From Scyliorhinus canicula (Eukaryota): a stretch of 64,000 nucleotides of DNA. The notes under the pieces were generated by a model. It was not told the origin of the DNA. It saw only the letters and a list, made by a program, of their open reading frames with translations, and made no database searches. The stretch's first letter is position 1, and the number at the start of each line of letters is the position of its first letter. Location: NCBI RefSeq assembly GCF_902713615.1, contig NC_052158.1, forward strand, positions 2,604,001 to 2,668,000, read 5' to 3'. Positions 3,834 through 64,000 of this stretch are shown here, one piece after another. The translations under genes and the position numbers were made by a program.

Positions 3834-5762
3834 TCAATCCACCTCCTCCACAGTGGGTCCTGTGGGATAGGCATTCCCAGCCTGGGATCGGCAAGAGCTC
3901 CCAGCTGCTGCTGCTCCTCCTTGGTACAGGTCGGCAATGATGGGATTGCAGACTTTTTCCAGCTCTTTCAGCTGGAACTCAAACTCCTCCTTCTCTGCCA
4001 TCTGATTGTTCTCCAGCCACTGTATTGCCTGCTCACACTGCTCAATGATTTTCTTCTTATCTGCCTCACTGATCTGATTCCTCACACTCTGCTCCTCCAC
4101 CCAGCTCTTCATGTTGAAGGCGTATGACTCCAGGGAGTTCTTGGCTGCGATCCTCTGTCGCTGGACTTCATCCTGGCTTTTGTACTTTTCTGCTTCCTGC
4201 ACCATCCTCTCAATCTCCTCCTTGCTCAGCCGGCCCTTGTCGTTGCTGATGGTGATTTTGTTGGATTGGCCGGTGCTCTTGTCAACAGCAGAAACATTGA
4301 GGATGCCGTTGGCATCAATGTCAAAGGTGACCTCGATCTGTGGCACCCCACGGGGGGCAGGGGCAATGCCACTCAACTCAAATTTGCCCAGGAGGTTGTT
4401 GTCCTTGGTCATGGCTCTCTCTCCTTCGTACACCTGAATGAGGACCCCGGGCTGGTTCTCAGAGTAGGTGCTGAAGGTCTGGGTCTGCTTGGTGGGAATG
4501 GTGGTGTTACGCTTGATGAGTGTGGTCATCACCCCTCCTGCGGTCTCGAGACCCAGAGACAGGGCAGCGACATCCAGGAGAAGTAAATCCTGGACATTCT
4601 CCGACTGATCCCCCATCAGAACAGCCGCTTGGACAGCCGCCCCATAGGCCACGGCTTCATCAGGATTGATGCTCTTGTTCAGCTCTTTGCCGTTGAAGAA
4701 ATCTTGCAGCAGTTTCTGGACCTTGGGGATGCGAGTGGAGCCCCCGACCAAGACCACATCGTGGATCTGCGATTTCTCCATCTTGGCATCTCTCAGAGCT
4801 TTCTCCACTGGTTCCAGAGTGCCTCTGAACAGGTCAGAATTCAGCTCCTCAAACCGAGCCCTGGTGATGGAGGTGTAAAAGTCTATGCCTTCAAACAGAG
4901 AATCAATCTCAATACTGGCTTGGGTGCTGGAAGACAAGGTTCTCTTGGCTCTCTCGCAGGCTGTCCTCAGTCTCCTGACCGCCCTCTTGTTCTTACTGAT
5001 GTCCTTCTTGTATTTACGCTTGAACTCCTCAATGAAGTGACTGACCATACGGTTATCAAAGTCCTCTCCTCCCAAGTGGGTGTCACCCGCTGTGGATTTC
5101 ACTTCAAAGATCCCGTCGTCAATGGAGAGAACAGACACGTCGAAGGTGCCACCTCCCAAGTCAAAGATGAGAACATTGTGTTCCCCTCTGCCCTTCTTGT
5201 CCAGGCCGTAGGCAATGGCAGCTGCTGTTGGCTCATTGATGACACGGAGGACATTGAGGCCAGCGATCACCCCGGCATCCTTGGTTGCCTGGCGCTGGGA
5301 GTCATTGAAGTAAGCAGGCACAGTGATGACAGCGTTGGTGACGGTGTGTCCCAGGTAGGCCTCAGCCGTCTCCTTCATCTTAATCAGCACCATGGAGGAG
5401 ATCTCCTCAGGGTTAAAGGTTTTATCCTCCCCCTTGTACTCGACCTTCACCTTGGGCTTCCCCGCCTGGTTCACCACCTGGAAGGGCCAGTGCTTCATGT
5501 CAGACTGGACCAGCGGGTCGTCAAACCTCCTCCCGATTAGCCTCTTGGCATCAAAGATGGTGTTGGGTGGGTTGAGAGCCACCTGGTTCTTAGCGGCGTC
5601 TCCGATGAGCCTCTCGGTGTCGTTGAAGGCCACGTAGCTGGGGGTGGTGCGGTTGCCCTGGTCATTGGCGATGATCTCCACCTTGCCGTGCTGGAAGACC
5701 CCCACGCAGGAGTAGGTGGTGCCCAGGTCAATGCCAATGGCTGTTCCTTTAGCTGGTGGCAT
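3834..5762 (-). CDS. hsp70: Cytosolic inducible-type heat shock 70 kDa protein, intronless, 642 aa (copy 1)
   Basis: Signatures [36 protein letters not shown] and C-terminal GPTVEEVD. First ATG (aagATGc) at 5762; the ORF-track start at 5843 is a GTG in the 5'UTR. Confidence 0.97.
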
Positions 5763-5879
5763 CTTGAGTCCTGATCCAAGCCGAGTGAATTCAGTCGCTG
5801 CTGCTGCTGTGAAGTTTTGCTGATGCAGTGATCCAGTTGCCACCTGCTCTGTGCTCCGGGCGGGAGGGTGATTGTGACT

Positions 5880-6330
5880 GGGAGCCGCTCAGCTCTTGTC
5901 CTTTATATCGGCTGAGAGCGGCCGAGTGGGCGCCGCGCGGAGGCTGATTGACGGCGGCGCGGACCAATGGGGGCGGGGGAGGTGACGTCACCGCGGTATG
6001 TTCGGAAGCGGCGGCCAATGAGAGCGGTGATGTCACCGCGGAATGTTGGCCAATGAGAGCGCGGAGCGGTGATGTCACCGCGGAATGTTGGCCAATGAGA
6101 GCGCGGCGGGCGGGCGGCAGGCGGAGAGTTGGAGAGTTTTGTGGAAGGTTCGAGTCCCGGGAAGAAAGTTGTGGAAAGTTGCGGAAGGCGGGGACGGGAA
6201 TGGACTGTGAGCAGCGGGAAGCGGCTGGAGGCGGGAAGGAGGAGCGGAGCAAAGAGGACATTGTTGGTCAGCGCCGGCCAGGGTGATGCCAACCCTCCCG
6301 GACTGGCCGGGAGTCTCCCGGAATTGGGGA
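5880..6330 (-). promoter_or_regulatory. HSP70 copy 1 CpG-rich promoter: TATAAA 5902-5907, CRE TGACGTCA about 5983-5990, four CCAAT boxes, GC boxes, HSE array about 6131-6190
   Basis: Motifs read directly; spacing to the ATG fits a Pol II promoter. Confidence 0.85.
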
Positions 6331-9316: not shown

Positions 9317-10118
9317 AACACCTTTGTTATAAAGTGATTGCATTTGGGGCCAAAGGGTATTTTGCTGCCAGTAATGAATAATTTCCATTTGCAAGATGAT
9401 GGGCCCTGAGAATTGAAATGTTGTGTGACAGAGTGTGGGAGTGGGGTTCATAGGGGACAGGACATTTTGGATTAAAATTTGCAGCAATATGCCTGTACGG
9501 AGTTGGCAATTCCAGCTGCCAACACCTCGATGCCCCCCTGGCAACTGTATGAGACGATGCCAGGCTGGTCATGATTTTGGTGTCAAACTTCAGGCCGAGA
9601 TGATCCTCTGTGTGCCATCACTATGACGATGTATTTCCATCTCCAAGCCATTGCCGAACTTCGTCCATGCCCCAGATATTTTCATTTGTGTCTTTGCTAC
9701 CGTTAGACTGACTATTCCGACACACATCAGGCTGGCCTGCCACATGAGATCATTCCAAACTCTGCTGTGTCTGTCTTAACTCTCATCAAGTCCTGTTCCT
9801 CACCACTGCTTTCCTCACTGACCTACATTGACTCCAACTCAGTCAAAATCCTTCATTCTAAAACTCTCAACCTGGTTTTCAAATGTCTCCTTTCCCTTGC
9901 TCTCACAGATGAAATAGGAGCAGCAGTAGTCCATTCGGCCCCTCAAACCTGCCCCACCATTCACAAAGATCATGGCTGACCTGTTGTCTTTCCAAATCCG
10001 CAATTCCCATCCACTCCGAACAACCTTTGATTCCCTTGCCCAACAAGAATCTTATCTACCTCCACTTTAAAAGAATTCAGTTTCCCCGCTTTCACCGCCT
10101 TGTGAGAGATCCAAGATC

Positions 10119-11200
10119 TCACAACCCTGCTGTCCCCAAAGTCACACAAGCCTGCTGTCCCCAAAGTCACACAACCCTGCTGTCCCCAAAGTCACACAAG
10201 CCTGCTGTCCCCAAAGTCATACAACCCTGCTGTCCCCAGTCACACAACCCTGCTGTCCCCAAACTCACACAACCCTGCTTTCCCCAAACTCACACAACCC
10301 TGCTGTCCCCAAAGTCACACAAGCCTGCTGTCCCCAAAGTCACACAAGCCTGCTGTCCCCAAAGTCATACAACCCTGCTGTCCCCAGTCACACAACCCTG
10401 CTGTCCCCAAACTCACACAACCCTGCTTTCCCCAAACTCACACAACCCTGCTGTCCCCAAAGTCACACAAGCCTGCTGTCCCCAAAGTCACACAACCCTG
10501 CTGTCCCCAAAGTCACACAACCCTGCTTTCCCCAAACTCACACAACCCTGCTGTCCCCAAAGTCACACAAGCCTGCTTTCCCCAAAGTCACACAACCCTG
10601 CTGTCCCCAAAGTCACACAAGCCTGCTGTCCCCAAAGTCACACAACCCTGCTGTCCCCAAAGTCACACAACCCTGCTGTCCCCAAAGTCACACAACCCTG
10701 CTGTCCCCAAAGTCACACAACCCTGCTGTCCCCAGTCACACAACACTGCTGTCCCCAAAGTCACATAACCCTGCTGTCCCCAAAGTCACACAACCCTGCT
10801 GTCCCCAAAGTCACACAACCCTGCTGTCCCCAAAGTCACACAATCCTGCTGTCCCCAAAGTCACACAACCCTGCTGTCCCCAAAGTCATACAACCCTGCT
10901 GTCCCCAAAGTCACACAACCCTGCTGTCCCCAAAGTCACACAACCCTGCTGTCCCCAAACTCACACAACCCTGCTGTCCCCAGTCACACAACCCTGCTTT
11001 CCCCAAGTCACACAACCCTGCTTTCCCCAAACTCACACAACCCTGCTTTCCCCAAGTCACACAACCCTGCTTTCCCCAAACTCACACAACCCTGCTTTCC
11101 CCAAGTCACACAACCCTGCTTTCCCCAGTCACACAACCCTGCTGTCCCCAGTCACACAATCTTGCTTTTCCCAAAGTCACATAACCCTGCTGTCCCCAAA
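10119..11200. repeat. Minisatellite, 25-bp unit CACACAACCCTGCTGTCCCCAAAGT, about 43-44 copies with 23-24 bp variants
   Basis: Direct reading of the tandem array. Confidence 0.97.
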
Positions 11201-11940
11201 GCCAGATAACTTGCTGCATCTGCATACTAACCTTTTCTGACTCATGAACTCATACAACGAGATCTCTCTGCTCCGCAGAATTCTGCAGCCGTTCTTTGCT
11301 TCAGTAAATGTCTGCTGTTTGATTCTTGCTGGCAAAGTGAACACCTTTCACATTGTGTTCTTCTGCCACACTTTTGTCCATTTGCTCAATTTATTTCTGT
11401 ACATCTGCAACCTCCTTCTGTCCTCTTCACAACATACTTTCCTATCTATCTTTGCTTCATCTGCAAATTTATTCCCTGTGCCTTTTCGCCCCTCATCGAG
11501 GTCATTGAAATAAATTGTATAATGTGTAGAACTCTACACTGACCCCTCCAGTAACACCCTCCAACTAGACGTCACTACTTAAATATAAGTGGTCGCTCAT
11601 TTAACACAGCGATGAAGAGAAATATATTGTCATCGAGGGTCGTGACTCTCTGGATCTTTCTTCCTCAAAAGGTCGTGGAAGCAGAGTCTATGAATATTTT
11701 TAAGGCAGAACTATCCATTGAAATCCTTCAGTGCGTCACAGTGGTGCGGTGGTTAGCATAGGACCTGGATACAATCCCGGTCCCGGGTCACTATCTGTGT
11801 GGAGTTTGCACATTCTCCACCACAACCCAAAGATGTGCTGGGTGGGTGGATTTGCCGTGCTAAATTGCTCCTTAATTGAAAAAAAATAATTGTCTCCTCT
11901 AAATTTATGAAGAAAAAAAGAATCCCCCTAAGCCGGAGGA

Positions 11941-12972: not shown

Positions 12973-13986
12973 AACAGTACAGCACAGTACAGGCCTTTCG
13001 GGCCATGATGTTGTGCCGAACTAATCTGAAACCATCCATGTTTCAAGCTCACCAACCTTATTCCTGATGCTCCTCGCATTGAAGTAGACACACTTCAAAC
13101 CACCTGCACATCTTTGGACTGTTGGAGTAAACCGGAGCACCCGGAGGAAACCCTTGCAGACCAGGCAAGAACGTGCAATCTCCACACAGACAGTGACCCA
13201 AGGTGGGAATTGAACCCTGGTCCCTGGTGCTGTGAGGCAGCAGTGCCAACCACTGTGCCATCACTGCGCTGCTGGATTGATTCTTAATTAACAATGGGGT
13301 GAAAGGTTAGTGGGCGTGGGCAGGAATGTGGGGTTGAGGTTACAATCAGATTAGCCATGATCCTATTGAATGGTGCAACAGCGTCCATGGAATTCCTACA
13401 GCGCAGGAAGAGAGTGTTTGGCCCATCGTGTCTGCATCGACCCTCTGAAAAAGCACCCTACCTAGTCCCACTCCCCCACCCATCCCTGTAAACTCATAAC
13501 CACGTCACCTAACCTCCACATCTTTGGGCACAAAAGCTCAATTCATCTCTATCCATCTTCAACCACCTTATGTCCTCTTCACAACAAACTTTCCTACGTA
13601 TCTTTGTGTCATCTGCAAATTTAGTCACCATGCCTTTTCTCCCCTCATCTACATCATTGATTATAAATTATAAGAAGTTGGGTACTCTGCACAGAGCCCT
13701 ACAGAAACCCAGGCGTGACATCTTTGAACAGTGTGAAGAAACCGGAGCACGCGGAGGAAACCTACTGAGACACGAGGAGAACGTGCAAACCACACACAGA
13801 CAGTCACCCAAGGGCAAAATCGAACCGGGATCCTTGGCGCTGTGAGGCAGCCTTGCTAACTAACCACTGCACGCTGCTGGATAGGTTCTTAAAGAGCAAG
13901 GGGGTGAAAGGATATCGAGGGTAGGCTGGAATGGGGGGTTGAGGTTACAATCAGATTCGCCATGATCTTACTGAACGGCGCAACAG

Positions 13987-14866
13987 TGTAGAAGTCAGGT
14001 ATTTTAAATACACTTAATATAGGTAAGAAGACTGTTTAAGACAGAAATATCAATTCCCAGTTTTAAAATGAAAGAACCATACAATTTCCAAACTCAGTCA
14101 TGAGTTTGCAAAACACAGAAGTTTGATAAAAACATCACATTTTCCAAGGGCAAGGGCGGAATCCATAGCAACGAGGGATAAGGATGAAGCATTGTTCGGT
14201 TCTCACGCCGCTCGAGATTAAGTTGAATCATATCCCATAAATTATACAAGCTAAAAAAATATCTTGAACTATATTGCCTTGTTTTTAATAAATGGACAGT
14301 TAAAACATCGACTCAAATATAATATATATATTTATATATTTGATTCCAACATTCTCAGTGAAACAATCTTATAAAAGACAGTTTGAGTTGTATGTTCTGA
14401 AATATGCCTAGCCTAGCAATATGAGATAACATGAGGTCTCCATGGTGGCAATAGGTAGGTCAGCATTAGACCAGTTTTTGCTGGTTTTGATAAAGCACAA
14501 TATCCCATGAGAAACATACCAATAAGCAACAATTAGAAGTGGCGTTACATTGTCATGATGGACGGCTTGTTATCAAATCAAGTGTGTTTTGAATATAGCT
14601 TAAACCAATTAGGATTATATTGGGGTGTGATCGGATCGCTTAAGACAGATATCAAAGAGTATATCCATGGATGATTTGACCACCATTTTTAGTGAAGTGA
14701 GGTGAAGTGAGGAAACTAAGAAGTGAGGCGTGAAGAGACTAGAGACGAGAGACTAGAGACTAGAGGCAGAAGATTAGAGGCAAGAAGACAGACAAGTCAG
14801 AAAGGCAAGAAGACAGACAAGTCAGAAAGGCAAGAAGACAGACAAGTCAGAGAGACAAAGAGAACA

Positions 14867-14901
<35 letters not shown>

Positions 14902-15212
14902 ATTAGAAAAGAGTTCTGTATTCCTATTTCATTTTCATACTTTGACTTCAGCCTCTGACTTTTAAAGTTGTGTTCAGGCTATTGTCTCAGAAGATAATTC
15001 CTGTGATTCTTTGAAGAAAATCAAATTGTCTACAAACTACCTTTTAAATCATTTTCAAGTTGTAACCAATGAACTTTGAATAAAACAATTCTTATTTGCA
15101 CCTGACAAGTTTTTAACTTGAATTTCTACTGAGTTTCAGCAATGTCTCACCAACAACCGGCAACCGTAAATTAAACAAAACTGGAATCAGATCCTAAAAG
15201 TGATACTTCACA
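13987..15212 (+). mobile_element. 5' LTR (1226 bp)
   Basis: TGTAGAAGT...ACTTCACA imperfect terminal inverted repeat and AATAAA at 15079-15084. Internal 25-bp triplication at about 14778-14850 and a (GA)n run; ends 3 nt before the PBS. Confidence 0.88.
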
Positions 15213-15215
15213 ATT

Positions 15216-15233
15216 TGGCGAGCCAGCCAGGAG
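15216..15233 (+). promoter_or_regulatory. Primer-binding site for tRNA-Arg(ACG)
   Basis: TGGCGAGCCAGCCAGGAG is the reverse complement of the vertebrate tRNA-Arg-ACG 3' end CTCCTGGCTGGCTCGCCA (18/18, from recalled tRNA sequence). Confidence 0.88.
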
Positions 15234-15531
15234 GGGAGGAGTTCTGATTCGACCTTCGGAGAGGTTCGGAAAACTTCGTGAGAAATCGGAGGAGGAACAG
15301 GCGACGACGGAAGCTTCGGGAATAATCGGAAGATATCGGAAGACAGTCGGAATCCACGGCTAGACTGGGGTAAGAAATATCTTTTTCACCCATTAAAAGT
15401 CTTAAAGCCGCATCAATCAGTGCTTCGACCCCTGAAAAGGACATTTTTATAGACTGTGTTAAATCAATCAGCTGCTGGTTGTTGAGACTAACGCAGCCTA
15501 CACAGAAAAAGTTAAGTGAAAGGTTGAATTT

Positions 15532-18015
15532 ATGGCTGATCCAGATGAAAGTATAGATTTAGACCCTTTAGAATGCAGAAATTTACTCCCTACGACGGTA
15601 AAAGGAGGAACTGGGATACCAGATGTTTCCATTGAAGATATGTTGGGGGATTTTGGGTCTTTCTTTCGTAAACAATTTGACCTATGTGAAACCTTAAGAA
15701 AAATTGAATCAAAGTATAATATCCGCAGAGGACAGTGGTCCTTTGATAATATCAAGAGAGCATGGGGAAAAAGCACACGATTGCACAGTGCAGAACGTGT
15801 TAAATGGTCCCTGGCAATTATGGGACAATTACGCAGACAGCAAGAGATAATTACTAAAAATAAAACTGATCATGAATATAGGACCACTAAAGACCAACTA
15901 ATTGCAGTTGTTGAAGAATTGCGAGATGTAAAATCCAAATTTGAACAGGACGATGAACTTAGAACAGAATTGCAAAACAAAACTTCTAAACTCCAGCAGT
16001 TATCTGTTCAAATAGAGTTCCAAGATCACATTTTTGATGTTGAGTCAAAATACAAACAGTTACAATCAAAAACTGATCAAACTGTACTTGAAAATTCAAA
16101 GTTAATTGCAGAAAAATGTGTTTTAGAAAAAGAATTGCAAGATACAAAAGCAAAGCTTGAACATTATGATGAAATTAGCACAGAATTGCAAAACAAAACT
16201 TCTAAACTCCAGCTGTTATCTTCTCAAATAGCAGAATTACAAAATCAAATTTTTGAGTTTGAGTCAAGATACCAAAAGTTGCTATCAAAAACTGAACGGA
16301 TTGAACTTGTAAAATATAAGGTAATGGAACAAAAATGTGTTTTAGAAAGAGATATGCAAGATGCAGAATCTAAACTTGAACATTATGATGAAATTGGAAC
16401 AGAATTGCAAAACAAAACCTCTAAACTCCAGGAGTTATCTATTCAAACAGCAGAATTACAAGATCAAATTTTTAAGGTTGAGTCAAGATACCAAAGATTA
16501 CAATCAAAAACTGAGCGAATTGAATATGATAATTGCAAGTTAATCGAAGAAAGATATGTTTTAAAAAACGATTTAAATATTGCCACTGAAAGTGGCAAGG
16601 TCCTAAAAGACTGGATTCAAACAGCAGCTGAAGTAACACAAACTCAACAAGCAGCCCACCTAGTGGCACAATTGGCAAATGCACAGCCAAAATCAAGTGT
16701 CACGAATAAATCAATTCCTTTGCCAAATGAATCAGACGAAGATAGTGTTCCTACAAAGCGTAATACTAAATTAATTCAACTAGCCCCTTTAAAACGCAAA
16801 CGGGTTAGAGTTGGAAGCAAAAAAATAGAGGAAGAAGGTGAAACTATCTCTAGAAACATATTTGATCATCAATGGACTCAGGAACCAGCAGAGCCTGCAC
16901 AAATTGACGAATGGTCCAAAAATCTCCCACATCCTAAAAAGGGTGGTATGTCCACATGGAATGGAATTAACAGATTAAAATCCATTTACAGTCTCCACCC
17001 ATTTGATGGAGTACAAGTTCTAACTATCATGCTAGGTACTCGCGTAATTTCAACCCTTAGAACTGAGGTGGAATTTGCCCTTGGAGATGATTTACAAAAT
17101 TTAGACGCTGGTTGGCTAGCAATCAGAGATTGGCTATTAACATTTCGCCCCCCGAGGACCGATTGGTCTAAGATCACATCTTGCATTCAAAAAAGTAATG
17201 AAGATATTCAGGATTTTGAGGACAGATTTTTACAGACTTGGATGGAATATTCGGGAATGACACTTACAGACGAAACTGACACATGGGATGCAAGCGATTT
17301 AAATCCGTTAAAAACGGCTTTTGTAGCCGGTGTTAAAACTGAAGTCTCTGATGCTTTGAATTTGGTTTTACCATCTTGGGCCAAAACTGGTACATACCGA
17401 GACATAGTTGACCGGTGCATTCAGATAGATCGCGGTTTACGCAATCGGACAAGCTCATCAGCAGTGACTAAAGCACAACCACAAGATTCAGGGCAAACAT
17501 GTACCCTGGCTCCATTAAAATCACGTAAGGAAAATATACCACTATGTCTTTACTGCGGTAAAGTAGGACACTGGATGGCAAAATGCTATCTTAAACCACG
17601 GATGGATTCGAGAGATGATAATGAGGTAGACAATTTTCACTACAATACATTTCCACCTCGTGGTCAACCACGTAATGCGCACAAACAAGATGCACCTAGG
17701 GTAACGTTCCAACAAGACAGACCCAGACTTACGTACAGGAATTCTAAAACCTCCCAACCTTATCCATGTAGGGAGGAACCTTATCCACGTAGGGAGGAAC
17801 CTTATCCACGTAGGGAAGAACCTTATCCACGTAGGGAGGAACCTTATCCACGTAGGGAGGAATCTTACCCATGTAGAGAGAAATCTTACCCACACGGGGA
17901 CGAACTGTACCCACGTAGGATTCTACACGATGATAACAATGCTATGAATGAAATGTTAAACAGCTGTCCTCCAGCTCAAAGACGTTCTCTGTGTGATAAT
18001 TCAAAAAACTGCTAG
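15532..18015 (+). CDS. gag: Gag polyprotein, 827 aa, intact
   Basis: MHR-like IQKSNEDIQDFEDRF (about 17185-17230) and CCHC knuckle CLYCGKVGHWMAKC (17545-17586); lies between the PBS and protease. Confidence 0.92.
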   Translation: MADPDESIDLDPLECRNLLPTTVKGGTGIPDVSIEDMLGDFGSFFRKQFDLCETLRKIESKYNIRRGQWSFDNIKRAWGKSTRLHSAERVKWSLAIMGQLRRQQEIITKNKTDHEYRTTKDQLIAVVEELRDVKSKFEQDDELRTELQNKTSKLQQLSVQIEFQDHIFDVESKYKQLQSKTDQTVLENSKLIAEKCVLEKELQDTKAKLEHYDEISTELQNKTSKLQLLSSQIAELQNQIFEFESRYQKLLSKTERIELVKYKVMEQKCVLERDMQDAESKLEHYDEIGTELQNKTSKLQELSIQTAELQDQIFKVESRYQRLQSKTERIEYDNCKLIEERYVLKNDLNIATESGKVLKDWIQTAAEVTQTQQAAHLVAQLANAQPKSSVTNKSIPLPNESDEDSVPTKRNTKLIQLAPLKRKRVRVGSKKIEEEGETISRNIFDHQWTQEPAEPAQIDEWSKNLPHPKKGGMSTWNGINRLKSIYSLHPFDGVQVLTIMLGTRVISTLRTEVEFALGDDLQNLDAGWLAIRDWLLTFRPPRTDWSKITSCIQKSNEDIQDFEDRFLQTWMEYSGMTLTDETDTWDASDLNPLKTAFVAGVKTEVSDALNLVLPSWAKTGTYRDIVDRCIQIDRGLRNRTSSSAVTKAQPQDSGQTCTLAPLKSRKENIPLCLYCGKVGHWMAKCYLKPRMDSRDDNEVDNFHYNTFPPRGQPRNAHKQDAPRVTFQQDRPRLTYRNSKTSQPYPCREEPYPRREEPYPRREEPYPRREEPYPRREESYPCREKSYPHGDELYPRRILHDDNNAMNEMLNSCPPAQRRSLCDNSKNC

Positions 18016-18316
18016 ACCCCACTCTTGATGATTCTCTCCATTTCTCTCTACATGCACTTTTGCAGCAGAAAAATGATGGATTATATATTTCATTAAGAGT
18101 GGAAGGTATTGATATCGATTTTCTATTTGATACTGGAGCTGAACTTACCTGTGTTACTGAACAGAATGCTGCTTTCTTTCCCCTGACTTCAGAGAAACTT
18201 GAAGCTTTTGCTGCAGGAGGAGACTCTGTCCCTCTTCGGAAGACTAAACCACTGCTCTTAGAATTTGGACCACATCAACTGATAGCGTCAATATGGGTAG
18301 GTCTGGTAACACAACA
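18003..18316 (+). pseudogene. pro: Retroviral aspartic protease, -1 frame, truncated (ORF runs on into the flanking SINE to 18440)
   Basis: FLFDTGA active-site motif and flap-like AAGG; frame open from the slippery heptamer AAAAAAC (18003-18009); the C-terminal GRD-type motif is missing. Confidence 0.88.
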
Positions 18317-20263
18317 AACAGGCTCCATTGAATTGAAACAGTGCAGAAAGAGGCCATTCGGCCCATTGAGTCTGCACCGACCATCTGAAAGAGAACCCGA
18401 CCGAGACCCACTCCCCCTTCCTATCCCTGTCACCCCATAACCCCACCTTACATGCATGCCTTTGGACACAAAGGGGCAATTTATCCCGGCCAATCCACTA
18501 AACCTGCACATCTTTGGACTGGGAAAGGGAATCGGAGTATCTGGAGGAAACTCACACAGACATGGGGAGAACATGCAGACTCCACACAGACAGTGACCCA
18601 AGGCCGGAACTGAACCCGGGTCCCTGGCTCTGTCAGGCTCCTGTGCTAACCATTGAGCCACTGTGCCGTGGTCGAGGGGCCGAGTGGCCTCCTCCTGGTC
18701 CTAATTCATGTGTTTGTGTTCTACTAATCAGAAAAAACAATCAATTTTTGCTCACTCTCTGTCTTCTGCCAGCCAATTGTCTAGTCGATCTTCTTGACGT
18801 TAAGAATCTCGCCAAACCCCATCAGCCTCTGGAATAACGATGCTCTTCTGATTCTGCCGTCTGAAGCCGAGTTGCTCTAATGCTGTTGGGCGCTCCATAG
18901 AATCATAGAAATTACAGTGCGGAAGGCGGCCATTCGGCCCATCGAGTATGCACCAGCCCTTGGCAAGAGCACCCCACTTAAGGCCACCCCTCCACCCTAG
19001 CCCTGTAACCCCTCCTTCAGCAGCCTAAACCCCAAGCTCTGAAATCCCCTCCTTCCACATCACCAGCTGTCTCTCTCTCTCCCTTACCAGCGTCATGTTA
19101 AATCCTCCATCTTTGGCCAAGTTCTCAGCAACCTGCCATAATACCGTCTGCAGTGTCTCGGTGCCACATTTTGCTTCGTTACCCTCCTGTAAACCTCCTT
19201 GAGGTGGTTTATTGAATTAGTGGGAAAATGTGAACAGAATGTGTTCCTGCTGGTGGCAGGGACAGCAGCAAAACCCCTTCTGGCGTCCAATGTCACTGTG
19301 ACTGTAAAATGTACAAGATTAAACAACAGTCAATGCCAGACGTGGTTAGGCTTCCCTGCTCCTGAACTGTCTGCTGGTTCTTCTGGAGTCGCCGTTCAGT
19401 CTACCCGTAAACGGGGCTCAGTTGGCCGGACAGCCCGTTCGTGATGCAGAGCGAGGCCAGCAGCGTGGGTTCAATTCCCGTACCGGCCAAGGTTATTCAT
19501 GAAGGCCCCACCTTCCCAACCTTGTCCCTCTCCTGAGGTGTGGGTGATCCTCAGGTTAAATCACCACCAGTCAGCCTCTCCCCCCTCAAGGGGGAAAGCA
19601 GCCGATAGTCATCTTTGGTATGTTGGGCTCAGTTTGATTTGGTTTAATCTCGGAGTAGCGGACGGTGCAGAATGTGTCAATGGCGTGCCACCTGTGTGTT
19701 GTAGAGCGGACAGCAGAAACATAGACAATAGGAGCAGGAGGAGGCTGTGGTTTATTTGAACTGGGTTCAAATAAACCACAGAGCTGGTGGATAGATTGTG
19801 TCGGCGATCCTTTGTCAGTGGAAAAATAAATCAATATTTAAAAGCACATTTTCAAAAATGTATTCATGTCAGAAATCAACACAAATAAATCATTCCGTGA
19901 GCAAAAAACTTTATTTAATGAAAAATATTCAGCCCAGCTGTGAGTAAGTGCAAATAAAGTTTAACCTGTACATTGAGGACATTTCCATACCACTAGATGC
20001 GAAACACAGTGAACCTCTTCAATATAATACATTGATCAAATTATTCCAATTAACAACAGTGGGTGTGGTACAGGCTCTACACAGTTTCCAGGCGCTATCA
20101 CCATCACAGTTATATTACAGTCACTGTAGACCTGGCAGCATCGAGACCAGTAAATGCCACCACTGTCAGTCAGGAATACAACACGTCTCAGCGCCCAATC
20201 CAGTAAAGTCCAAAAATCTGATGTGTCCAATTCCCAACGTTCATCCTTGTTCTTTCCGGCATT

Positions 20264-50004: not shown

Positions 50005-50686
50005 GTCTCCAATCGGGTCTCCGACAGTGCATTCCCGTCTCCAATCGGGTCTCCGACAGTGCATTCCCGTCTCTAATCGGGTCTCCGACAATGCATTCCC
50101 GTCTCTAATCGGGTCTCCGACAGTGCATTCCCGTCTCCAATCGGGTCTCCGACAGTGCATTCCCGTCTCCAATCGGGTCTCCGACAGTGCATTCCCGTCT
50201 CCAATCGGGTCTCCGACAGTGCATTCCCGTCTCCAATCGGGTCTCCGACAGCGCATTCCCGTCTCCAATCGGGTCTCCGACAGCGCATTCCCGTCTCCAA
50301 TCGGGTCTCCGACAGCGCATTCCCGTCTCCAATCGGGTCTCCGACAGTGCATTCCCGTCTCCAATCGGGTCTCCGACAGTGCATTCCCGTCTCCAATCAG
50401 GTCTCCGACAGTGCATTCCCGTCTCCAATCGGGTCTCCGACAGTGCATTCCCGTCTCCAATCAGGTCTCCGACAGTGCATTCCCATCTCCAATCAGGTCT
50501 CCGACAGTGCATTCCCGTCTCCAATCGGGTCTCCGACAGTGCATTCCCATCTCCAATCGGGTCTCCGACAGTGCATTCCCGTCTCCAATCGGGTCTCCGA
50601 CAGTGCATTCCCGTCTCCAATCAGGTCTCCGACAGTGCATTCCCGTCTCCAATCAGGTCTCCGACAGTGCATTCCCGTCTCTAATC
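50005..50686. repeat. Minisatellite, 32-bp unit GTCTCCAATCGGGTCTCCGACAGTGCATTCCC, about 21 copies, in TRIM intron 6
   Basis: Direct reading; no spacers between units. Confidence 0.97.
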
Positions 50687-51510
50687 GCTCAGTGCATTTT
50701 TTTTTTAAAGTTCTCTTCATGGTACCTTACAATAATAATCTTTCATTAGTGTCACAAGTAGGCTGACATTAACACTGCAATGTAGTTACTGTGAAAAGCC
50801 CCTAGTCGCCACATTCCGGCTCCTGTTCGGGTACACAGAGGGAGAATTCAGAATGTCCATTTCACCTAACAGCACATCTTTCGGGTTATTTTGTGAATGA
50901 CAGTGACATGGAGGAAGTATTTAATTGGCTCAAAAGCAGTTTGCATTTATCCTAAATTTGTGAAAGGTGCTGCATAAATCTGTCTTCCTTTTCGATATAT
51001 AAACATAGACTTGGAAATATATCGGCCGTTTCTTCACTGTCACTGGGTCCAAATCACAGAACTCCCTCCCGAACAGCACTATAGGTGTACCTACATCTCT
51101 GGGACAGCGGGGGGAGCGGGGGGGTGTTCAAGAAGGCAGCTCACCACCACCTTGTCAAGGGGCAATTGGGAATGGACAAATGCTGGTTTAGTCCGTCGCC
51201 CCCACATCCCGTGAATGAATAAAAGGTCCATACTGTTGTTAATCTTTATTGTCACAAGTAGACTTACTTTAACACTGCAATGAAGTTACTGTGAAAATCC
51301 CCTGGTCGCCACAAACCGGAGCACCCGGAGAAAACCCACGCAGACACGGGGAGAACTCCACAAGCCAGGAATAGAATCCGGGTCCCTGGTGCTGTGAAGC
51401 AACAGTGCTAACCACTGTGCAACTGACAGCAGAAAGCAACTGATTTTGTTTAATGATTTTTGGTCATGTTTGTCTTCAACTGTTCTAATGTTGAATAATC
51501 TCTTTAACAG

Positions 51511-58915: not shown

Positions 58916-61900
58916 GAATTCCTGTAGGCAAGCTCATTAAAATGGACACTGACTTCTTTACTCGCTGGGGGCAACGGGTGGTGGATGGAGAACCCTCTCA
59001 AACACCTGGCTTGCCCCACAGACTCGGGAAATGTGCAACTTGTGCCTTTTCACTTTGCCAAAGTGGAGACAAAAGTTTAATGGTTGCAAAAGATATTAAT
59101 CCAGCCCCATGTCATTACTGTTAGCTGGGGAGCTGATATTTGAGCCAGAATAAAAGAAAATTCTATCGTAGAATCCCTACAGTGCAGAAGGAGGCCATTT
59201 GGCCCATCGAGTTTGCACCGACCCTCTCAAAGAGCTCCCTAACCAATCCCTGTAACCACACCTAACCTGCACCTCCTTGGACACAAGGGCAATGTAGCAT
59301 AGCCAATCCACTAACCCGGAACATCTTTGGACTGTGGGGGGAACCCGGAGCACCCGGTGGAAACCCACGCACACACGGGGAGAGCGTGCAAACTCCACAC
59401 AGTCGCCCGAGGTCGGAATTGATCCCGGATTCCTGATGCTGAGGCAGGAGGGCTGAAGGTGGCTTTCATGTTGCACTCTGTAAATTTACATTTCCTTTTT
59501 ACCGTTTCTAACGGGGACCTTGTGTCGTGGTATAGTTAACCATTGCATGGCGGATGCAAAATCCACATTGTTGCAGCACTAGCGAGGCCTTTGAGTACTC
59601 CAGGTGAAGACGGTATGTCTGTTGTCACTGTCTCAGTGGTAGAGCTCTCTCCAGTGAGTTGTTAAGTCAGACTCTCTCCAGAGTTTAGAAGACACAAATA
59701 TACCCAGGTCAGCACTGAGGAAGTGCTGCACAGTCTGATCGTTCAGCTTTGAGCCCAGACATTGACTGGAGTGTCCATCCGCCTTCTCAACTCGGCAGGA
59801 AAGATCCCACAGCAGTCATTTCAAACCCAGGAGGGGGGGCGGGGGGGTTCCTCCCTAAACACTGGCCAATAGATTACTCAGGATGATCAGTCAGTTGTGC
59901 ATCACTTGGGACCTGTGTACAAAATAGCTGCTGTTCCCCAAATTACTGCAATGGCTGGCACTTCACTGTCTGTAAAACATGCTTGGGCATCCTGAGATTA
60001 CCAATGGTATCACATCAGTGATGGGCAACCTAGGCTAATGAGTGGCCCTCTAATTGGGTGGGCCGCAAGGTTCAAATCAGGCTTGTTCTCCAACCAGACC
60101 CTGTGTATAAGATTGAATACATGTTGCATATTTGAACATAGAACATGCAGTGCAGAAGGAGACCATTTGGCCCACGAGTCTTCCACCCTATTCCCGTAAC
60201 CCAATAACCACTCCAAACCTTTTTGGTCACCAAGGACAATTTATCATGGCCAGTCCACCTAACCTGCATGTCTTTGGGCTGTGGGAGGAAACCGGAGGAA
60301 ACCCACGCAGACACGGGGAGAACGTGCAGACTCCGCACAGACAGTGACCCAGCGGGGAATTGAACCTGGGGTCCTGGCACTGTGAAGCCACAGTGTTATC
60401 CACTTGTGCTACCGTGCTGCCCACAAGTTGGAGAAAATGCTTAATCGTTTATATCTTAATGAAACTGTCATCAACTTCAAACAAAATAAATATTGACACT
60501 TTGGATGCAGAGGGAGCACAAGGCTCACACAGTCAATGTGTGCGATCAGCACACGCCTCACTTCACTTGCCCTTGTTTTACGTGCGAATCTCTTCACACC
60601 GGTGAGAGAAAAGCTACGTGGTCAGGAATCGGCGGAATGGTGCCCCTTTACGTGGGAAAGGGTCAACCAACAAAGTGTCTCATGGGCCGCACATGCGGAC
60701 TGCCCACCCCGGAACTACATTCCAGTTCTTTTATTCGCCAAAGACCTCAGTTTCCTGACACCTTTTTTTAAAGGTTAGGGTGGTTATAGCAGACATGAGA
60801 AATCCTATCCTTTCTGCTTTTTGCTTGCATTGATTTCTAACCTTAGTCGATAATTGATTCCATTTTGTTTCAAGTAATTCTGAAATGAAGTTGCCAGTGA
60901 TCCGGTTAGCAGGGAGTGGGCGCGGTCTGTTGAGTAGGCCAGATTTACAGAGGCTAATTCCTGTTCTGTATTGGGGCGTCAGTGCTTGGTGTCAGTAGCA
61001 GGCGAGCAGAACGGCCTTCACAATGTTCGACTGTACCTTGTGGGTTATGTTATCTGCATTTCACATTTTGGGTTTGGATTGGATATGATTTATTGTCACG
61101 TGTACAGAGGTACAGTGAAAAGCATTGTTCTGCATACAGTCCAGATAGATTGTTCCATCCATAAAAAAACAGGATATACGTAAATACATAATGTACATAC
61201 ACACAGACATTGAGTGGTGTCACTCACACTGACGCTCACCCTGAGCTACATCAGCAAATTAACACTGGGCCCAATATAACCTGTGCTGGGTGCTGAGTAA
61301 ACATGTTAGCTTCCATTTGTGGACCTGATTATGTCTGCAACTTTGATTGACCGCAAGTCGTCTTCCTGTTCAAACTATTACAATATGTAAATGGAAGCAA
61401 GTCATTTCTACTTGAATAAAACCTTCATTTGATTTCAAAGTTTTCATTTCTATGTGTAATTATTTATACGAATGGATAAATATGCAGAGATAACATTTCT
61501 AGCTGAGTGAGATGCATGTGTGTTGGCTGGATAGCTGGTTCATGATGCAGAGATGCCAGCAGCGTGGGTTCAAAACCCGTACCAGCTGAGGTTATTCATG
61601 ACGGCCCTGCCTTCTCAACCTTGCCCCTCTCCTGAGGTGTGGTGATCCTCAGGTTAAATCACCACCAGTCAGCTCTCCCCCCTCAAGGGGGAAAGAAGCC
61701 TCTGGTCATCTGGGACTATAGCGGCTTTACCTTTACCATAACACAATTACCATACATATAACAGCTGCGATTAGGGGCAGCATAACTGGGGGTGCCCCGA
61801 AGATGTGCTGGGGGACTCATTCCACTGCCCCCCCCTCCGTTGCTCCAAAGCGGGCAGTCCCCAGGTGAGAAATGCGCAGCAATTGCTCAGGAAGTTAAAC

Positions 61901-62651
61901 TTCTGTTGGGCAATTGCCCTGGACAGGAAACCATCTGGTAAACACAACATAAATCACAAACTTTGGGTGGTTCCGATTGACTAACAGTGATAGTTATCCA
62001 GAGGGAAACAAGTGAGAAGAATTAAAAAAAGAATTAACATCCAGGTAGCTATAGTACTGGCACCCGAAACCCATGTGGGAGCCCCTCACTAACACTCCCC
62101 ACCCCCCCCCCCCCCTCCTCCCCACAAATCGACTCCAATCACTCATGGAACAGGTCTACTCCCCACGATATTGGCTGGCTTCCCTGTCCATACCTTAACT
62201 AACCATCCTCAAGATGTCTTCTCCCTGGCAAACTTGCTGACCTTCTCCCTGGCTTGTCAAATTGATTACACCATTTAAATTTAACTACTTTTACATCAGC
62301 AACTGCAATGCAAAATTGTGTGTGTGTGGGGGGGGGGGGGGGGTTCGCGGTGAGCGTGAGACCTTCCTTACCTCTGACCTTTCCTGCTCTCTGAACCCAG
62401 CCTCAAGATTCCGCTGCTCCGCCCGGCCTCGGTCAGGGAAGGTGTGGCTTCGAATCCAGGGAAATTGGTAGCTGTGCAGTGGCAGTGTGACTCTGTCATT
62501 CTTAATGCACAAAATGCAATTTGCTTTATGCATTGGGTGGGATGTATTCTCTTCCTGCCCATCACTAATGGTGATTGAGAAGGTATATCGATAACGTAGA
62601 ATCCATTAGAGTGCAGGAGGAGGCAATCCGGGCCCTCTGAAAGAGCACTCT

Positions 62652-62980
62652 GGGCAGCACGGTAGCACAAATGGCTAGCACTGTGGCTTCACAGGGCCAG
62701 GGTCCCAGGTTCGATTCCCCGCTGGGTCACTGTCTGTGCGGAGTCTGCACGTTCTCCCCGTGTCTGAGTGGGATTCCTCCGGGTACTCCGGTTTCCTCCC
62801 ACAGTCCAAAGATGTGCAGGTTAGTTGGATTGGCCATGATAAATTGCCTTTAGTGGCCAAAAGGGTCAGATGGGTTATTGGGTTACGGGGATAGGGTAGA
62901 AGTGAGGGCTTAAGTGGGTCGGTGCCGACTCGATGGGCCGAATGGACTCCTTCTGCACTATGTTTGATGTGTTCTATGAT
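62652..62980 (+). mobile_element. Full-length HE1/V-SINE-like element
   Basis: Head, core and tail present. Confidence 0.85.
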
Positions 62981-62981
62981 A

Positions 62982-63195
62982 AGAAGTCTGACAACACCAG
63001 GTCAAAGTCCAACAAGGTTGTTTCAAACACCAGCTTTCGGAGCGCTGCTCCTTCCTCAGGTGAATGAAGAGGTATGTTCCAGACACATTTACATCGACAA
63101 ATTCAACGGTGATTCACCGGAGGAAGGAGCAGTCCTCCGAAAGCCAGTGTTTGAAACAAACTTGTTGGACTTTAACCTGATGTTGTAAGACTTCT
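62982..63195. mobile_element. Inverted-repeat mini-element with a hammerhead-like motif in each arm
   Basis: Arms about 62982-63064 and about 63113-63195 are reverse complements; same family as 46995-47075, 6581-6661 and 23023-23104. Confidence 0.7.
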
Positions 63196-63449
63196 TTCTG
63201 TGTGTGTATGCAGAGAAAAACATTTAGTCTTTCTACACTTAAATGGCTGAGTTGAATCCAATTGGCGCAGACACATTGGGACTTGGGGGGAGTAAAGAAT
63301 TGGGGCTGAATGGCCTCCTGCACAGATGGATTCTTTTAAAAAAAATTTAGAAAGAAATTTGGAATGTGTTGAAAGATGAAAAAGATCAACTTGTTCAATG
63401 CTCCATGTTTCCTTCCCCTTCTCCAGGATTTGCTCCCAAGATCTGTCCC

Positions 63450-64000
63450 CAATTCCGGGAGACTCCCGGCCAGTCCGGGAGGGTTGGCATCACCCTGGCC
63501 GGCGCTGACCAACAATGTCCTCTTTGCTCCGCTCCACCTTCCCGCCTCCAGCCGCTTCCCGCTGCTCACAGTCCATTCCCGTCCCCGCCTCCCGCAACTT
63601 TCCACAACTTTCTTCCCGGGACTCGAACCTTCCACAAAACTCTCCAACTCTCCGCCTGCCGCCCGCCCGCCGCGCTCTCATTGGCCAACGTTCCGCGGTG
63701 ACATCACCGCCCCGCGCTCTCATTGGCCAACATTCCGCGGTGACATCACCGCCCCGCGCTCTCATTGGCCGCCGCTTCCGAACATTTCGCGGTGACGTCA
63801 CCTCCCCCGCCCCCATTGGTCCGCGCCGCCGTCAATCGGCCTCCGGGCGGCGCCCACTCGGCCGCTCTCAGCCGATATAAAGGACAAGAGCTGAGCGACT
63901 CCCAGTCACAATCACCCTCCCGCCTGGAGCACAGAGCAGGTGGCAACTGGATCACTGCATCAGCAAAACTTCACAGCAGCAGCAGCGACTGAATTCACTC
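63450..64000 (+). promoter_or_regulatory. hsp70: Promoter and 5'UTR of a third, inverted HSP70 copy (TATAAA 63876-63881; ATG expected about 20 nt beyond the window)
   Basis: Near-identical to the copy 1 and 2 promoters and 5'UTRs; the CDS itself is not visible. Confidence 0.85.

Follow-up and report, generated by a model that had tools for sequence, protein, structure and literature searches.

The window analysed here, a stretch of 64,000 nucleotides from the shark Scyliorhinus canicula, contains a truncated provirus at 13987-18316 on the forward strand (as are all features below unless stated otherwise), flanked by two copies of the pentamer AACAG (13982-13986 and 18317-18321). The element opens with a 1226-bp 5′ LTR (13987-15212, TGT...ACA), whose ends recur in solo and paired LTRs at other loci of the genome, continues with a primer-binding site, a splice donor and an 827-aa gag, and breaks off after about 105 codons of pro (18000-18316, in the -1 frame, with the DTG motif at 18129). 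The 3′ LTR, env and the greater part of pol are missing. The first-pass annotation had placed the element at 15216-18316; the end was right and falls inside the protease, but the start lies with the LTR at 13987.

The same window provides an empty site for comparison. Two open frames on the reverse strand (3837-5888 and 20267-22330), which we take to be Hsp70 from their translations, mark duplicated units that are about 98% identical, and the provirus is present in one unit only. In the paralogous unit, AACAG occurs once (458-462), and comparison of the flanks of the two units shows 4 differences in 461 positions and 29 in 1038. This bears out the 5-bp target-site duplication proposed earlier; a 7-bp duplication was ruled out, as the flanks do not match. 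Because the paralogous unit has the empty site, the insertion is probably younger than the duplication of the Hsp70 unit. A third Hsp70 unit, partial and inverted, lies near 60100-64000, and minisatellites with periods of 25 and 32 nt occupy 10040-11216 and 50005-50687.

The truncated end (18310-18321) retains the target-site duplication and shows five bases common to the internal sequence and to the LTR end plus duplication, with three extra bases. This arrangement fits a microhomology-mediated deletion, the alternative being integration at a cryptic internal CA. The truncation junction is present once in the genome, which rules out a replicating truncated variant.

In the leader, the primer-binding site (TGGCGAGCCAGCCAGGAG, 15216-15233) agrees at all 18 positions with the site expected from the host tRNA-Arg(ACG) gene, as had been claimed. 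Yet primer sites are mixed among the 20 close copies of the family: five are exact Arg sites, 12 are Ser-type (one exact and 11 imperfect tRNA-Ser(AGA)-type), one is intermediate between Arg and Ser, and two were not found. ARAGORN recovered tRNA-Ser(AGA) in three of three further loci with the Ser pattern, and none in the first two tested. Judged by these sites, the Arg primer is no lineage marker, because 12 of 20 close copies carry Ser-type sites; it was also rejected as evidence of relatedness to snakehead retrovirus. Two primer tRNAs mixed among copies that are 97-99% identical represent a natural case of primer switching. An older copy (L064) has an Arg-like site.

The splice donor (GG/GTAAGA, 15370-15376, with GT at 15370), previously described only as donor-like, is used: on another family copy, RNA reads join it by a GT..AG intron to an acceptor some 200 nt upstream of the env start codon (two of three RNA runs, with two and five reads). 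Family-wide transcription is low, as judged from RNA reads mapped on that other copy.

The gag frame (15532-18015) starts at the only ATG of the leader and ends with TAG. All that had been noted of the protein was found: it begins MADP, without Gly2, and has a major homology region (MHR, 17188-17226) and a single CCHC zinc knuckle (17545-17586). About three repeats of 219 nt (73 aa; repeats D9-D11, 15914-16574) in the N-terminal half are likely coiled coil, with weak coiled-coil-type Pfam matches below the cut-off, and 21-nt repeats with REEPYPR-like units vary in number between copies (17735-17923). The capsid domain (16852-17460) was submitted to the suggested Foldseek comparison. Its predicted model, with a pLDDT of 90.5 when built from an alignment and 36 from the single sequence, has a retroviral fold whose best match is the MLV capsid (E 3.8e-5; Z 11.6, rmsd 4.8, 190 aligned residues). 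The nearest named Gag, from Scyliorhinus torazame, has 75% identity across the capsid. Gag spans 2457-3013 nt in 19 copies, in mostly in-frame steps via the 73-aa and 7-aa repeats, and the short unit recurs about 18 times in one copy.

The gag-pro junction and its predicted stem-loop

The gag and pro frames share only positions 18000-18012, and within this overlap lies the slippery heptamer A-AAA-AAC (18003-18009), in phase and followed by a -1 frame open as far as DTG, as the annotation had it. Taken alone, the heptamer is not beyond chance, because slippery heptamers occur in phase 11 times among the 826 codons of this A/T-rich gag; the one at 18003 is alone in opening a -1 frame of more than 24 codons. 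Its conservation is more informative. Among the 20 close copies, 17 have AAAAAAC and an open -1 frame to DTG, one has the frame with an altered heptamer (making 18 with pro in the -1 frame), one was unscored and one breaks off there. In older copies the heptamer is kept in 14 of the 18 with a junction (two of 20 older stretches lack it), while the preceding bases diverge. The same offset is retained, with Pol conserved, in shark subfamilies whose capsid DNA is 65-99% identical.

Six bases after the heptamer begins a predicted stimulatory stem-loop (18016-18107), with a 13-bp core pairing 18019-18031 with 18090-18102. Folding of 18016-18130 gave a z of -3.38, reached by 0 of 200 shuffles, and shorter windows gave no signal (z 0.98 and 0.00); 18016-18110 is, by a narrow margin, the most stable of 538 windows (-30.0 vs -29.4). 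In 24 copies, 94.7% of the 300 cells of the core are paired, against 30-49% in slid controls, and three of the 13 pairs are altered on both sides, although the stem was drawn from the window's own fold and these double changes trace to few subfamilies. RNAalifold independently recovers 10 of the 13 core pairs. The conservation of the stem is support for a frameshift signal, not proof, because the copies share ancestry and the sequence also codes for protein. The fragment 17990-18080, named earlier for a dual-luciferase test, removes the 3′ arm of the stem (-10.2 vs -30.0 kcal/mol for 18016-18110).

Family members, bony fish relatives and phylogenetic placement

Searching the 4.2-Gb genome with the capsid gave at least 167 matches, from 150 scored candidates. 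The 20 high-scoring copies, taken as 10-kb stretches, contain RT in 18 cases, integrase in 15 and env in 13. In one natural copy, Pol comprises protease, RT (YVDD), tether, RNase H, integrase and an MLV-type integrase tail (MLVIN_C match, with WEGPF, of the GPY/F type), and env matches TLV_coat, with syncytin-1 as its best solved-structure match. The family domain search gave no dUTPase match. Many copies hold stops or indels, and the window copy is itself defective. Of 30 LTR loci, nine lacked both ends under a strict pattern, nine were proviral 5′ or 3′ LTRs and 12 were others. Exact 5-bp duplications flank 10 of 12 solo-type LTRs and four of five LTR pairs, the fifth having one mismatch. 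The earlier claim of very recent activity holds: the family was active very recently, because the members of the five LTR pairs differ by only 0, 0, 1, 4 and 17 substitutions over about 1200 bp. These are very young env-bearing insertions in a shark.

The nearest Pol proteins are from teleosts, in clusters of carp, cod, Coilia, Alosa, Astyanax and zebrafish (49-60% over Pol). The evidence for the teleost junction consists of predicted proteins only, highly redundant, so that the junction is known there from the protein level. Around a zebrafish protein we found 120 Gag matches, 37 without a CCHC match and 83 with one. Of these 83, 40 end xKN-stop, four continue into Pro, three have lost the stop, two use the third frame, 21 fall in a differently ending cyprinid group and 13 are unclassified. 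Three teleost peptides share one DNA in the -1 register only, among 25 registers tested. In a second teleost group, 22 of 29 proteins end [KGLP]N plus 0-2 residues, mostly QGN-stop, vs four of 87 Pol matches and five of 35 distant Gag matches; QGN-stop ends are what G-GGA-AAC would yield. The 21 cyprinid Gags have another tail, of the NCWSSLLRC type, which resembles the third reading frame of the junction, and are possibly a Gag-only subfamily.

All close relatives from a metagenome scan (L071-L073) were partial or had internal deletions, and viral contigs scanned with the Pol alignment and with the Pol of a teleost ERV (L074) gave no match. In L071 (2690-5836), the Gag N-terminus is fused in frame to tether-RNase H-integrase; capsid, protease and RT are absent and the env frame is kept.

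The full-length copies, RT trees and env typing recommended earlier yielded copies with pol and gamma-type env, whose RT joins teleost sequences in the trees. In the tree of RT plus tether (25 rows removed and two added relative to the first tree), seven relatives group with the shark family (100/100), and the sister group of this clade (99/99) is a crown uniting walleye-type, SSSV-like and gamma rows (100/99). An RT-core tree in which class II is represented by four rows (three of delta type and one of lenti type, on long branches, with no alpha or beta) joins class I and class II into the sister group of the clade (91/98), a position subject to a long-branch warning. Both careful trees set it apart from the snakehead type. 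A first quick tree, which drew delta-type rows beside the walleye type, was not relied on, and L159 and L186 were dropped for short alignments. AU tests rejected grouping with walleye-type rows (p 0.036), where the reference labels are inferred, and with loki-like rows (p 0.006), which are labelled by tree position only; they did not reject grouping with the snakehead type (0.137), crown class I (0.27) or class II (0.145), which makes the deeper placement unstable. The snakehead-type and walleye-type labels were assigned from length and layout, L184 having 10,688 nt as in PMC12193657. The trees hold no named ERV-L or ERV4 sequence.

The other domains are class I-like, including RNase H (113-141 bits against class I rows vs 59 against the snakehead type), integrase, env and capsid. 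The most fitting label for the family is that of a basal, class I-like fish ERV clade with shark and teleost members, which the RT trees place outside the walleye-epsilon/gamma crown. The annotation had suggested a poorly described lineage, and the RT trees agree as far as a basal retrovirus is concerned, but not with its mention of Gypsy or lokiretroviruses. Ty3/Gypsy is ruled out by the best solved-structure match of Pol, a gammaretroviral RT (XMRV/MLV, 431 bits, vs 202 for foamy and 166 for Ty3), with which the RT trees agree. Lokiretroviruses are ruled out by the gamma-type env, the MLV-like Pol and capsid, and the rejected RT grouping. As for a class III-like affinity, the 5-bp duplication is indeed typical of ERV3 and ERV4 (PMC4299795, Table 1), but published traits rule out identity with either, since zinc finger and GPY/F are both present.

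Recoding mechanism and alternative explanations

Programmed -1 ribosomal frameshifting is likely how this family makes Gag-Pro-Pol, because nearly all close copies have pro in the -1 frame, the heptamer is followed by a 13-bp stem that covaries, and the same junction occurs in teleosts at the protein level. A stem of 13-16 bp, beginning 6-9 nt beyond A-AAA-AAC, would make ribosomes pause; the smaller share of them would shift to the pro-pol frame, and the others would end Gag two codons on. Env is made from an mRNA spliced at the leader donor and integration yields 5-bp duplications, as observed for the family. The primer sites suggest that tRNA-Arg would serve in some copies and tRNA-Ser in others. 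The window copy probably lost the 3′ LTR, env and the greater part of pol by deletion after insertion. We therefore regard it as probable that the window stretch is a truncated recent copy of an env-bearing ERV from a shark-teleost clade outside the crown, one likely using -1 frameshifting.

In some human class I ERVs (of ERV9/HERV-W type), gag and pro have been described as lying in separate frames. Against the main reading, Jern 2005 had already counted -1 junctions in 17% of gamma-like ERVs and remarked on post-insertion indels (PMC1224870). The frame offset could be an inherited defect of a helper-dependent lineage, as the defective window copy and the stops or indels of many others might suggest; this is extremely improbable, given that the offset was kept across the shark subfamilies and in cyprinid relatives while Pol was conserved. 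Pro-Pol could also be translated, as in foamy viruses, from an mRNA of its own, made by splicing or separate initiation, or arise by polymerase slippage on the A run, with the heptamer being incidental. The abundance of slippery heptamers in gag and the low RNA depth over the junction leave some room for this, but there is no Met before DTG in the pro frame, the sole canonical RNA joint leads to env, and a conserved stem at the usual distance, together with the teleost signature of G-GGA-AAC type, fits ribosomal rather than A-run slippage. We consider such a route very unlikely.

A different objection accepts frameshifting and questions its novelty: the family may be an ordinary member of fish clade Mu/ERV1, with a frameshift and 5-bp duplication that repeat databases or papers already document. 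The class I-like domains, the AU test that leaves class I membership standing, the zebrafish relative and the mention by Xu 2018 of two fish groups within clade Mu (PMC6001957) all speak for it. Against it, grouping with the walleye type is rejected, only read-through is given for gammaretroviruses, epsilonretroviruses, SnRV, SSSV and ZFERV in the relevant portions of two reviews (PMC13517186, PMC3835772), and our searches of an open-access library gave no description of it. On balance this reading seems possible but unlikely. The clade has probably been sampled already in RT surveys and repeat databases, and the supplements of PMC6001957, PMC8672886, PMC10435555 and PMC4299795 may list it. 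In the opposite direction, the clade could be an unnamed genus-level lineage whose sister group combines class I and class II, the topology of the RT-core tree, with -1 frameshifting inherited from the ancestor of all three and the read-through of gamma- and epsilonretroviruses a reversal. This is rather improbable, and parsimony does not separate an ancestral frameshift from two independent gains.

Likenesses to known retroviruses

Of the traits that had been presented as an unusual combination, the frameshift is indeed distinctive, but the Arg primer, the 5-bp duplication and the missing Gly2 occur in the snakehead type or in basal ERVs. The 5-bp duplication, TGT...ACA ends and lack of Gly2 are ordinary for basal ERVs in published accounts (PMC4299795, PMC8278194, PMC2717909). 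A frameshift layout outside class II is the trait that sets the clade apart. Gag and pro lie in one frame in the snakehead-type (L184) and walleye-type (L180) references, in L074 and in gamma-type loci, and in-frame stops are also reported for Ovex1 and XtERV-S (PMC2717909, PMC8278194).

The epsilonretroviruses and epsilon-like fish ERVs (WDSV, WEHV, SSSV, ZFERV; clade Mu) share with the family the PR-RT-tether-RH-IN order, a class I-type RNase H, a GPY/F-type integrase tail, one CCHC and fish hosts, and the gamma-type env is found in L074 as well. Unlike the family, they have an in-frame gag stop (PMC13517186), the Gags of the walleye type and L074 start MG, ERV1 duplications are generally, if not strictly, 4 bp (PMC4299795), and the shark-teleost clade lies outside their RT clade. 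Snakehead retrovirus (clade Huo) has the identical Arg primer site and a coiled-coil Gag without Gly2 and with one zinc finger (PMC2717909), but it has an in-frame TAG, its RT is 39% identical, its RNase H, Gag capsid and env have little or no detectable similarity, and no accessory ORFs were seen in the shark family. Class II viruses (MMTV, HTLV, BLV, EIAV) resemble the family in using A-AAA-AAC or G-GGA-AAC with a structure 6-9 nt downstream (PMC3835772), and lentiviruses further in a single shift into fused pro-pol; they differ from its MLV/syncytin-like Pol and env, 5-bp rather than 6-bp duplication and one zinc knuckle. XtERV-S, ERV3/ERV-L and ERV4 share the 5-bp duplication, TGT...ACA ends and absence of myristoylation (PMC8278194, PMC4299795), and XtERV-S also has a class I-type env (PMC8278194); these elements differ in lacking a zinc finger, ERV3 and ERV4 in lacking GPY/F, and XtERV-S in its in-frame stop. 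Lokiretroviruses have fish hosts, tether and RNase H, and a coiled-coil Gag in Bhikhari (bioRxiv 2024.03.25.586437), but their env resembles paramyxovirus F (PMC7947760), in contrast to the TLV_coat env of the family.

Retroviruses have been sorted globally by translational strategy, gamma, epsilon and snakehead-like viruses by read-through and class II by frameshifting (PMC1224870). This rule would be broken by a conserved, compact frameshift signal in a fish clade that is widespread and lies outside class II, which, if confirmed, would imply at least one further switch between the two recoding modes. In two other ERV families of the shark genome (L193-L200, L201-L204), gag and pro lie in one frame in 7 of 8 and 3 of 4 stretches. 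One of these families has two CCHC knuckles and an in-frame TGA; the second has an in-frame TGA-CGG and many copies with open frames of 1408-1419 codons.
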